Assembly: GCA_947632405.1 (NCBI GenBank)
Contig: CANRPE010000001.1
Location: 42,095-106,094, forward strand
Direction of reading: 5' to 3'
Source of the DNA: an uncultured Bacilli bacterium
GTDB lineage: Bacteria; Bacillota_I; Bacilli_A; RF39; UBA660
Length of the DNA: 64,000 nucleotides
Below, piece after piece: positions 21,637-24,180 of the stretch. Made by a program: the position numbers and the translations under genes. A model generated the notes under the pieces. It saw nothing but the letters and a program-made list of their open reading frames with translations. It was not told the origin of the DNA and did not search any database. How positions within the stretch are numbered: position 1 is the first letter of the stretch; every line of letters begins with the position of its first letter.

Positions 21637-24180
21637 ATGGCAGATATACGTGGAATTAATTCAAAAGTATCTTCAAATATTTCATTGAATTATAAAGTAA
21701 ATAATTCACCAAATATGAATATTGATAAAGTTCAGAACAAAGCAACTACTTCAAATCAAAAAGTAGAAACTACAAAAGTTGATTTGTCATTAAAACCAAA
21801 AAGAAGTATAGGTCAAAATGCAGCAACATTTGGTATAGGAATAACAGAAGGTATGCTTGGAGTTGGAGAAAAAGTAAGAGATTTTGTTGAAATGAATGGA
21901 GTTAAACTTTTTGGAAAAGCAGATGTAGGTTTACAAAAAGCTAAAAATGGAATTAAAAGTTTATTAGGTTTATTAACACAGCAAGATAAAAATGATTTAA
22001 AAGTAAAAGAAAAAGTTTATGAGGAAATGATGGAAGAAACAGCTGCACATGTAGCAACTGATGAAGTAAAAAGTGTATTATATGATCCTTTATATCAAGA
22101 TTTAGGTTTAATAGAAGAACAAGAACAAACACCTCTTTCAAGATCTTTAGGTAATGGAGTAGGTGAAACTTTTGAAATTTTAGGATTGGCATTAACAGGA
22201 GGTTATGTAGTATCTGGTTACTCTACAGCAGCTGCTGCTGAAATGGGAACTCAAGAGGCACTAGCAACATTAAATCAAGCAACTTCAACAAAAGTTTTAA
22301 GACCTTTTCTAGCAGGAATAACAGGAGCAGGTGAAGGATTACAAACAGCATATCAAGAAGGTGCTGATGTTAATAAAGGATTAAAATATAGTTATTTAAA
22401 AGGAACTTTTAATTCAGCACAATGGCTAATTGGAGAAGGTATTAATCAGTTTACACCATTTCAAAATTCCACAAAAAATAGTTCATTACATGTAGTCTTA
22501 GATTCAATAGATGGTGGAGCAGAAGGTATTGTTCAACCTTGGTTAAAAACAATATATGATGATAGAAATTATTCGACTTTATTTAAAGAAAATGGTGGAT
22601 GGACAAATGTTGGAGTACAAGCTTTGATAGCAGGAACACTTTCAACAACTTCAGAAATTTTTAGTAATAGAAGTAATTTATATCAACAAAAAAATAATCA
22701 ACAACCAAATACCGAGATAAATTCACAAAAAATAAAAGATAATGTAATATCAATAGAAGATTATAAAAATAATAAAATACAGGCTCAAGAAGAATTAAAT
22801 AATGTAATATCAATAGATGAACTAAGAAGTAAAAAACAAAATTTAGCAGTAAACTCAAACACTAAGCCAGAAGGCGTAAAAACAGAGGTTATAGAATTTC
22901 CAAATCCTGATAAGCAACCAGTTGAAATGAATAAACAAGTAGTAAATGGAGATTATTTTGTAGATAATCAGACTCCAATAACAGAAATAAATTCTTCTTC
23001 AACTACTGATAATAATGTTGTATCTTTTTATAGAAATCAATCTCAACAGCAATCATATCATCCTCAACAACAAGTAGGTTCTATCAATAATTTAAATAAA
23101 ACAATAAATAATAGTTATTCAAATCTTTTTGATACTAATGGAAAATTAAATTATTCTACAGCTACTAAAATTTTGCAATCAAAAGGTTTTTCAGATGATG
23201 ATATTATTGATATATATAATAAAACGAAAACAAGTGATTTAGTAGCATTATTAAAAAGTAATCAAAATATCAATGATATTAATCCATCAATGCCTAAAGT
23301 TAAATTATTTCAAAATTCAACACAAATGTTATCAAGTATACCAGATCCAATTAGAAATTATAAACTTTTGGATAAAATTACAAAAAAAATTATTGAAGCA
23401 ACTGAAACAGGTCAAAGTGCATATGGAGTCGTTACTAATTTAAATAGTGTATCTAAAAAATTGCCTTCTAAGCAAATATGTGATAATTATTGGAACACAG
23501 TATTTAACTCTGGAGCTAATATAAAAAGACAGTTCAGTCAAAATGGCAAGACATGTTTTAAAGATATTAGTAAAATTGAATTTGATCAATTACAAACAAA
23601 TGATTTTATTCATATTCAAAAAGGAAAATATATTGGAGGAGAAAAATTATATTTAAATATTGATATAGATAATGCCTATAAAATTTTACCTATGTTTATG
23701 AAAGAATGTGATAATCAAAATTTAGGATATTATTTTAAAGTTGCTAAATATAGTGGAAATGTATATAACATAGGACAATTTACAAGAGATGAAGCTATTG
23801 TCTTTTATTCTAACAATGAAAATACTTATAAGTATGTTAATATTTTAGAAAATATTTTAAGTAACAATCCAGATATTCCTATTTATGAGCCTCCTGCACT
23901 TGCAGGTGTAATTAATAATAAAATAGGTTTTGGAACTGATCCACCTACATCTGATATAATTCAAGTAGATGGCAGAACAATTAAATTAGAAAGATCATAT
24001 AATGGGCGCAGAGGACAATTAGTTAGTGATGCTTTCATGAATACTTTATCAAAATATGATGATATTACAAAATTATCACCACAAAAATATCAAGAATTTA
24101 TCCAAAATTTTTATAAAGAGATAAAAAGATTATCACCTATATATAAAATTAATCCAAATAATTTTATGTATAATAACTAA
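21637..24180 (+). CDS. large modular protein (about 847 aa), candidate T7SS-associated effector with no recognisable TM segments
   Basis: N-terminal Gly/Ala-rich helical region; a central Q/N-rich low-complexity region with a short tandem repeat (NVISIEDYKNNK / NVISIDELRSKK); and a C-terminal globular domain of about 300 aa (YYFKVAKYSGNVYNIGQFTRDEAIVFY...) that I cannot assign. The ATG at 21637 follows an AGAGGG Shine-Dalgarno. Confidence 0.5.
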   Translation: MADIRGINSKVSSNISLNYKVNNSPNMNIDKVQNKATTSNQKVETTKVDLSLKPKRSIGQNAATFGIGITEGMLGVGEKVRDFVEMNGVKLFGKADVGLQKAKNGIKSLLGLLTQQDKNDLKVKEKVYEEMMEETAAHVATDEVKSVLYDPLYQDLGLIEEQEQTPLSRSLGNGVGETFEILGLALTGGYVVSGYSTAAAAEMGTQEALATLNQATSTKVLRPFLAGITGAGEGLQTAYQEGADVNKGLKYSYLKGTFNSAQWLIGEGINQFTPFQNSTKNSSLHVVLDSIDGGAEGIVQPWLKTIYDDRNYSTLFKENGGWTNVGVQALIAGTLSTTSEIFSNRSNLYQQKNNQQPNTEINSQKIKDNVISIEDYKNNKIQAQEELNNVISIDELRSKKQNLAVNSNTKPEGVKTEVIEFPNPDKQPVEMNKQVVNGDYFVDNQTPITEINSSSTTDNNVVSFYRNQSQQQSYHPQQQVGSINNLNKTINNSYSNLFDTNGKLNYSTATKILQSKGFSDDDIIDIYNKTKTSDLVALLKSNQNINDINPSMPKVKLFQNSTQMLSSIPDPIRNYKLLDKITKKIIEATETGQSAYGVVTNLNSVSKKLPSKQICDNYWNTVFNSGANIKRQFSQNGKTCFKDISKIEFDQLQTNDFIHIQKGKYIGGEKLYLNIDIDNAYKILPMFMKECDNQNLGYYFKVAKYSGNVYNIGQFTRDEAIVFYSNNENTYKYVNILENILSNNPDIPIYEPPALAGVINNKIGFGTDPPTSDIIQVDGRTIKLERSYNGRRGQLVSDAFMNTLSKYDDITKLSPQKYQEFIQNFYKEIKRLSPIYKINPNNFMYNN

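Follow-up and report, generated by a model that had tools for sequence, protein, structure and literature searches.

Polymorphic toxins of type VIIb secretion systems (T7SSb) and their DUF4176 chaperones are already known, and our knowledge of these toxins comes almost wholly from LXG proteins of cultured streptococci, staphylococci, and bacilli. DUF4176 proteins act as chaperones of T7SSb toxins, which depend on them for stability and export; in LXG toxins, LtcA and LtcB attach to an amphipathic region that is disordered, and in the case of TelD a small DUF4176 protein is required (PMC12478183). For small DUF4176 proteins, the authors of that study speculated that they shield hydrophobic helices, and the clients of this kind are still speculative in the literature. 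Here, we study a gene directly upstream of essC, the gene of the T7SSb ATPase, in a window of 64,000 nucleotides (nt) from an uncultured Bacilli bacterium (contig CANRPE010000001.1); the term window denotes this whole stretch of DNA. With a probability of about 65%, we infer that its product of 847 amino acids (aa) is a polymorphic toxin exported by the adjacent T7SSb and endowed with lyase activity. The locus suggests that a separate carrier domain with a genetic link to small DUF4176 proteins is in wide use among uncultured gut Bacilli, and this domain family would offer these proteins a concrete partner.

Among the described systems, the LXG toxins TelA, TelB, and TelD of Streptococcus intermedius with their Ltc/DUF4176 chaperones are alike in their poorly ordered middle region, in an adjacent DUF4176 gene, and in a locus with EssC and small WXG-like helical proteins. 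Unlike them, the 847-aa protein does not match PF04740 (E up to 0.1), nor do 61 relatives scanned (E up to 0.001), and no LXG structure appears among the fold matches in the PDB. Furthermore, the DUF4176 proteins are here of the small kind and encoded by two tandem copies directly upstream, no immunity gene follows the toxin gene, two DUF4176 genes and rsmG are found upstream in place of two Lap-type genes, and the weakly WXG-like proteins are encoded downstream of essC. The 'LDXD' N-terminal domain of Zhang and Aravind belongs to EsaD/EssD of Staphylococcus aureus. This protein is similar by description, being a non-LXG T7SSb toxin with a helical N-terminal region and a hydrophobic stretch behind it; its chaperone, however, is EsaE and not a DUF4176 protein. 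The PT-TG pre-toxin domain (PF14449) is likewise different, with no match in the 847-aa protein or in any of the 61 relatives.

The gene is one uninterrupted open reading frame (ORF) on the plus strand, extending from 21628 (GTG) or 21637 (ATG) to 24180. The ATG is the likely start, because it comes after AGAGGGTG, a sequence resembling a ribosome-binding site (RBS), and residues are numbered throughout according to the resulting 847-aa product. This product is identical (100%) to the public protein P0001, which is recorded on seven public metagenome contigs. It is composed of a leader predicted to be disordered (residues 1-55), an all-alpha N-domain (56-350), an N/Q-rich linker (351-552), and a confidently modeled alpha/beta C-domain (553-847). 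Between the end of the gene and the start of essC lie 63-78 nt without an ORF, depending on whether essC starts with GTG 24244 or ATG 24259; no terminator-like site was found in this interval, and a promoter scan was uninformative at 24% GC (83 sites vs. 88.7 expected). Two antisense ORFs within the gene, 21953-22192 and 22661-22858, are unsupported and were set aside.

Several features of the protein had been anticipated from the sequence alone. The original prediction described a gene directly upstream of essC whose product, lacking convincing transmembrane (TM) helices, was unlikely to be EssB or EsaA. This agrees with our data: The maximum Kyte-Doolittle (KD) mean over 19-residue windows of the whole protein is 1.18 (residues 181-199), no segment is TM-grade, and neither the topology of EssB (one TM segment) or EsaA (several) nor a Pfam or NCBIfam match to these core families was observed. 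A match to WXG100 (PF06013, a helical hairpin of about 100 aa with WxG) is missing, too. The N-terminal 350 aa had been described as Gly-rich and helical with GxxxG spacing; indeed, Gly makes up 12.2% of the N-domain, twice the 6.0% of 12 other ORFs in the window, four GxxxG motifs are present, and the modeled domain is all-helical. The expected Q/N-rich, low-complexity center with a direct repeat at the DNA level corresponds to the linker, where N and Q account for 25.7% of residues vs. 9.8% in the background (2.6-fold). Two exact copies of the repeat AATGTAATATCAATAGA are present in the same frame with a spacing of 60 nt, at a chance expectation of 0.01, and both copies encode NVISI(E/D). 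They belong to the short linker motif found at residues 368, 388, 416, and 459, of which the copies at 416 (EVIEF) and 459 (NVVSF) are looser. Finally, a globular C-terminal domain of about 300 aa had been proposed and is recovered as the C-domain.

Word-index homology searches retrieved only the protein itself when queried with the full sequence, presumably swamped by the low-complexity linker, and nothing when queried with the C-domain alone or with an N-core profile. A full HMMER scan of 1.84 billion representatives revealed 492 related clusters at E up to 0.001, the best 150 of which were re-analyzed locally. Among these 150, about 120 match residues ~56-350, some of them reaching into the linker, and about 30 match residues 553-847, while both domains occur together in five proteins (P0008-P0011 and P0015). 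In at least 120 clusters (50% identity), the N-domain thus stands at the head of proteins whose C-termini differ and whose lengths range from 240 to 2,200 aa. Scanning 61 N-domain relatives for known families revealed ADPrib_exo_Tox as the tail of ten and Transglut_core in six; further members terminate in Tox-ART-HYD1, in a HopA1-like domain, or in a domain of unknown type. P0002, the closest relative, has the N-domain in common (44% identity) and its linker motifs in the same order, but its tail is an ADP-ribosyltransferase. The nearest relatives of the C-domain, in turn, form the last 300 residues of proteins of 1,700-2,400 aa that have no N-domain. Polymorphic toxins are recognized by a constant head combined with a variable tail (Zhang et al. 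2012, PMC3482391), and thus these relatives, in which a shared N-terminal module is joined to differing C-terminal toxin domains, reveal a polymorphic toxin architecture. The polymorphic-toxin-like architecture assumed in the original prediction is supported from both ends, the N-domain being followed by many tails and the C-domain being preceded by other N-terminal regions.

The genomic neighborhood of the family ties it to T7SS genes. A genome scan with the 136-aa core of the N-domain as query, restricted to one genome per species, returned 24 loci, all from metagenome-assembled genomes (MAGs) of uncultured gut or rumen Bacilli, 'Mollicutes' or 'Tenericutes', the nearest of which does not exceed 40% identity over the core. 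Neighboring genes were identified by tblastn with the island proteins of the window. In 22 of the 24 loci, the N-domain gene is immediately preceded by a small DUF4176 gene, and the remaining two loci are cut at that end. EssC is encoded within 10 kb in 13/24 loci, just as essC adjoins the gene in our window. Homologues of the 88-aa protein encoded behind EssC follow EssC in 13 other loci, mostly with 52-64% identity; they accompany EssC everywhere but in L020, and one is also present in L015. Related loci usually display the order EssC, 88-aa gene, DUF4176, toxin, and then homologues of the 218-aa and 186-aa proteins of the island. The position of the toxin gene upstream of essC, which had been noted as unusual, is therefore real in the window but a local rearrangement rather than a property of the family. 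Several DUF4176-toxin pairs may occur in a single locus, e.g., in L007, and many pairs are found far from any EssC amid housekeeping genes.

Concerning the C-domain, the assumption that it resembles no nameable family can be revised. Its model, based on an alignment of 21 sequences, reaches a mean predicted local distance difference test score (pLDDT) of 83.9 and a predicted template modeling score (pTM) of 0.81. Foldseek searches against the PDB place HopA1 first (4rsw_A, E 5.8e-7, template modeling score 0.63 on the target; 4RSX, E 1.1e-5), together with LxmY of the lexapeptide dehydratase complex (9DK3_B, E 1.8e-6) and, with E values of about 6e-4 to 7e-3, class III lanthipeptide synthetases (LanKC); no other PDB match was significant. 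At the sequence level, PF17914 (HopA1) detects 15 of the 21 relatives in the alignment with E values under 0.01 (best E 4.3e-9), and the three full-length relatives P0007 (25.4 bits), P0037 (28.4), and P0008 (31.1) pass its cut-off. PF17914 is the sole Pfam family matched by the C-domain, and a housekeeping-enzyme family, which would have spoken against the original prediction, was looked for in Pfam and NCBIfam for the whole protein without a match. By its model, the C-domain has the fold of HopA1 and of the LanY phospho-amino-acid lyases. HopA1 of Pseudomonas syringae (PF17914; 4RSW/4RSX), the best structural match, differs in that a Gram-negative plant pathogen employs it as a type III effector and in that it has an N-terminal chaperone-binding region of its own, and sequence identity amounts to about 12%.

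LanY proteins of the HopA1 family are phospho-Ser/Thr lyases; in CaoY, mutation of R187, K219, or R229 impaired the elimination, and K219 and Y236 correspond to the base pair of SpvC (PMC9486802). Three residues of the C-domain, K701 (in YYFK), R717 (TRDE), and Y724 (VFY), are invariant in the 21-sequence alignment, and K670 (EKLYLN), 31 residues before K701, occupies a position held by R or K in the relatives. The spacing of these R/K, K, R, and Y residues is 32, 10, and 7 residues in CaoY and 31, 7-16, and 7 residues in the C-domain family. This supports a candidate active site of the LanY type, as mapped from motif spacing. The alignment additionally displays a near-invariant His (H659) and an SxN..R motif. 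LanY and LanKC enzymes match the modeled C-domain in fold, and its candidate residues parallel in spacing those tested in CaoY; the enzymes differ in acting with a dedicated kinase on a leader-bearing peptide, whereas here neither a kinase nor a precursor gene is present and the domain forms the tail of a candidate secretion substrate.

The N-terminal part was modeled with AlphaFold2 on window positions 21637-22836 and 35 aligned sequences. Over residues 58-186 and 218-353, the model consists of helices of 22-52 residues with pLDDT of 80-95, while a Thr/Ala-rich loop (189-216) is disordered. The N-domain matches no family in Pfam or NCBIfam, no fold in the PDB (best E 0.5, not significant), and a PDB sequence search with the N-terminal part gave nothing meaningful (best E 0.015, outside the N-domain). 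A Foldseek search of the model against BFVD yielded marginal similarity to uncharacterized podovirus proteins of more than 900 aa (E 4e-3 to 5e-2, template modeling score ~0.3 on the query), which we do not rely on. In 46 of 101 homologues, the stretch equivalent to the central helix of the N-domain is TM-grade, with a KD value of 1.6 or more; the corresponding values of the three closest relatives are about 1.0-1.4.

In the leader, this protein and about a quarter of the other family leaders share two motifs, M..[IV].[GK]I at the N-terminus and the acidic-hydrophobic [IV]E[ET][YFLI]x[LFI]. The latter was found in 25 of 108 leaders vs. 5.4 expected from shuffled sequences; it is located 30-110 (mostly 30-60) residues from the N-terminus and here reads KVETTKVDLSL. 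It is common to toxins with different downstream domains (P0002-P0004, P0014, P0017, P0058) and also occurs in P0005-P0007, which are devoid of the N-domain. It is possibly an export or chaperone-binding signal. Other leaders of the family carry a W[IV]G..A..F signature. An assignment of the relatives' leaders to WXG100 or LXG domains was rejected, with one weak WXG100 match (E 0.006) in eight leaders tested. Taken together, the leader would act as export signal and the N-domain as a constant, possibly membrane-active carrier.

To characterize the surroundings of the C-domain elsewhere, the contexts of eight other C-domain toxins were inspected. In five of the eight, a DUF4176 gene is located directly upstream. 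Two small protein families, famA with about 86 aa and famB with about 78 aa, are encoded directly downstream, and a famC gene (about 170 aa) often comes next. Hidden Markov models (HMMs) built from five members each detected famB at seven distinct loci, two of them not used in the model (E 9e-17 and 1e-13), and famA and famC at five loci each; none of the three families has a Pfam match on record. A role of famC as immunity protein specific for the HopA1-like domain is weakened, since famC also follows a toxin without the C-domain (L019, 11344-11889) and is therefore not specific to it.

From these observations, a putative mechanism may be sketched. Judging from the conserved gene linkage and published DUF4176 work, the two small DUF4176 proteins encoded upstream would bind and stabilize the toxin in the producer. 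The disordered leader, possibly together with the small WXG-like helical proteins of the island, would then present it to EssC for export. The Gly-rich helical N-domain would serve as constant carrier, and, speculatively, its central helix may insert into the target membrane and help the C-domain to cross; this possibility is raised because roughly half of the family members reach TM-grade hydrophobicity there. The C-domain would be the toxic part; most likely, it would remove phosphate by beta-elimination from phospho-Ser or phospho-Thr residues of target proteins, whose inactivation would be irreversible.

A number of observations weigh against this reading. The PF17914 score of the protein, 13.9 bits for the whole sequence and 16.2 bits for the domain alone, stays under the gathering threshold of 22.7. 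PDB sequence searches with the C-domain profile (no match) and with P0037 (one chance match, E 1.5) gave no HopA1-family or lyase chain, and hence there is no residue-level alignment of the C-domain to HopA1, LxmY, CaoY, or SpvC. The biochemistry of HopA1 itself is unsettled. With a KD value of 1.18, the central helix is less hydrophobic than in half of the relatives. No homologue of EssB, EsaA, or EssA was detected by Pfam or NCBIfam among the 29 ORFs of the window scanned, which leaves the function of the reduced T7SS putative. The cognate immunity gene that characterizes T7SSb toxins is absent from its expected place: No immunity-like gene is located directly downstream, and the famA, famB, and famC HMMs find nothing in the 64-kb window (best E 0.12-0.37). 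The small immunity-like partner which the original prediction had proposed to look for was accordingly not encountered, neither as a fam gene in the window nor as an ORF in the gap to essC. A protective gene may be encoded elsewhere in the genome, the producer may lack the target, or the toxin may be aimed at a eukaryotic host.

The last of these options would make the protein the same exported effector directed at a eukaryotic host, its HopA1-like domain acting on host phosphoproteins as OspF, SpvC, and HopAI1 act on MAP kinases. The producer would then need no immunity protein, which fits the lack of immunity-like and famA/B/C genes beside the toxin gene and elsewhere in the window; all relatives originate from gut or rumen MAGs, and HopA1 and the OspF family are themselves host-directed effectors (PMC9486802). 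Still, we consider this unlikely: In seven other loci, conserved small genes come after this toxin domain, as expected for self-protection against an antibacterial toxin, most T7SSb toxins investigated to date act on bacteria (PMC12478183), and the immunity gene could be located outside the window. The sub-threshold PF17914 score and the missing immunity gene would also suit a catalytically dead HopA1-fold binding module, the protein acting by partner binding or as a surface or scaffold protein. Along this line, HopA1 is chiefly known for binding EDS1, and K670 is a Lys where most relatives and CaoY have Arg. However, SpvC has a Lys at the equivalent position, and the invariance of K, R, and Y across 21 divergent sequences argues for selection on an active site, which renders a dead module rather improbable.

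Two further explanations concern the role of the protein in the locus. The absence of recognizable EssB, EsaA, and EssA in the window, the proximity to essC, and the TM-grade central helix of 46/101 family members would be expected if the protein were a structural part of a reduced T7SS which replaces these membrane components, and not a substrate. Core components, though, are not normally polymorphic, and here the C-termini are variable and toxin-like, several paralogues share single loci, many copies lie far from EssC beside housekeeping genes, and the 847-aa protein itself contains no TM-grade segment; on these grounds, a structural role is highly improbable. The fold similarity to LxmY and LanKC might moreover suggest a LanY-type enzyme of a lanthipeptide or thioamitide pathway instead of a toxin. 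Such a role is hardly to be expected, because neither a kinase (APH/LanK) nor a precursor peptide or any other gene for peptides that are made by ribosomes and modified after translation (RiPPs) is present in the island; besides, the domain is fused to a T7SS-linked carrier within a T7SS locus.

Several parts of this picture were not found described in the literature searched: a non-LXG carrier domain without a Pfam, NCBIfam, or PDB match that heads at least 120 clusters and almost always resides beside a small DUF4176 gene; a HopA1/LanY-fold domain as the tail of a polymorphic toxin; the pairing of N-domain and C-domain; and a famA/famB module behind the tail. Likewise, no paper in this literature was found to link a HopA1/LanY-fold domain or phosphothreonine lyase activity to the T7SS or to polymorphic toxins. 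Tentatively, and at odds somewhat below even, LXG toxins might not be the only major class of T7SSb substrates: The N-domain family with its leader motif and small DUF4176 partner might constitute a second one, frequent among uncultured gut Bacilli and relying on a reduced machinery of EssC and small helical proteins without EssB, EsaA, and EssA. On this proposal, HopA1-type members would be the first interbacterial toxins to kill by irreversible phospho-Ser/Thr elimination, famA and famB (perhaps also famC) would form a new immunity or accessory set, and the copy in the window would be unprotected or host-directed. If the C-domain is an active lyase, it would bring a new chemistry to bacterial warfare and provide a tractable bacterial model for the poorly understood HopA1 family. 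The apparent lack of the three membrane components, in turn, bears on the question of a minimal T7SSb machine.

Table 1. Coordinates of the toxin gene, its parts, and its island neighbors in the window, and of fam gene regions in other loci.
Feature	Position	Strand	Basis or remark
Candidate T7SSb polymorphic toxin, 847 aa	21637..24180 (incl. stop codon)	+	ORF; RBS-like AGAGGGTG before ATG
Leader, residues 1-55, predicted disordered	21637..21801	+	pLDDT 33-38; MADIRGI at N-terminus, KVETTKVDLSL at 42-52
N-domain, residues 56-350, all-alpha Gly-rich module	21802..22686	+	Relatives; AlphaFold2 pLDDT 80-95 in helices
Gly/Ala/Thr-rich central helix of N-domain, residues 174-200, GVGETFEILGLALTGGYVVSGYSTAAA	22156..22236	+	Most hydrophobic stretch, KD 1.18
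N/Q-rich linker, residues 351-552, four copies of short motif [DN]NV[IV]S[IF] and variants	22687..23292	+	Composition; low pLDDT
Exact 17-nt direct repeat, copy 1	22741..22757	+	AATGTAATATCAATAGA
Exact 17-nt direct repeat, copy 2	22801..22817	+	AATGTAATATCAATAGA
C-domain, residues 553-847, HopA1/LanY-fold candidate toxin domain	23293..24177	+	Model, Foldseek, and PF17914 in relatives
Stretch with candidate catalytic residues K670 (23644-23646), K701 (23737-23739), R717 (23785-23787), Y724 (23806-23808)	23644..23808	+	Alignment and CaoY spacing
Small DUF4176 protein a, 88 aa, candidate toxin chaperone	21060..21326	+	PF13780 E 1.8e-27
Small DUF4176 protein b, 92 aa from ATG 21346 (96 aa from GTG 21334)	21346..21624	+	PF13780 E 3e-25
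EssC, T7SSb FtsK/SpoIIIE-type ATPase	24259..28833 (alternative GTG start 24244)	+	TIGR03928 963 bits, cut-off 778; PF01580 E 9.5e-32
88-aa protein overlapping essC end, position usual for EsaB/YukD (identity putative)	28826..29092	+	No Pfam match
Two helical proteins, 218 aa (29259-29915) and 186 aa (29997-30557), candidate secreted/targeting partners	29259..30557	+	Weak WXG100
Two small proteins closing the island, 100 aa (30566-30868) and 81 aa (30861-31106)	30566..31106	+	No convincing Pfam match
fam gene regions behind HopA1-type toxins	L030 10951-11459; L031 6012-7043; L033 12602-14246; L035 7507-7987		
fam gene regions behind HopA1-type toxins	L036 11250-11730; L037 10366-10868; L038 6931-8018		

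The toxin gene belongs to a ten-gene island (21060-31106) between rsmG and noc/parA/parB, near dnaA and the GC-skew switch. Its order is two small DUF4176 genes, the 847-aa gene, essC, the 88-aa gene, two genes of WXG-like helical proteins, and two small ORFs. DUF4176 protein b is annotated as a 92-aa gene on a public contig. The WXG100 similarity of the 218-aa and 186-aa proteins (E 0.008 and 0.038, respectively) is below the cut-off in both cases; both are kept beside the EssC/toxin cluster in L019, L021, and L024-L026. The 218-aa protein is rich in Ala, Gly, and Ser, which is unusual for a genome with 24% GC, and has counterparts with 38-40% identity beside the toxin in five related loci. 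The closing 81-aa protein is weakly conserved in L024 and L025, and the L033 cluster contains genes of similar size at the positions of the two small ORFs. In the island, EssC seems to be the sole recognizable membrane component, and related MAG loci (L009, L019, L021, L024-L026, L033) share its compact gene set. The island may be a reduced T7SSb, or its remaining parts may be encoded elsewhere in the genome.

Genes for PBP1, MurA, and MreB are also found in the window, as is one for an M23/LysM peptidase; its source is a member of the Bacillota with a cell wall and 24% GC, which has no representative in the species-level genome collection scanned. At 13262-15466, dnaA/dnaN (minus strand) and rnpA/yidC (plus strand) point away from each other, and GC skew flips its sign at ~14 kb; therefore, the replication origin is probably located in the window, ~7 kb from the T7SS island. 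Behind the island, a Noc/ParB-like protein of 460 aa (31216-32598) carries its ParB_N and helix-turn-helix domains in residues 6-199 only, followed by a 260-residue tail without Pfam match. No tRNA or rRNA genes were found in the window, and a 429-aa ORF at 62014-63303 has no Pfam match at E up to 1e-5. Two RNA elements were identified, a small signal recognition particle RNA at 4763-4854 on the minus strand (51.6 bits) and an L31-Firmicutes ribosomal leader at 57267-57297 on the plus strand (38.3 bits).

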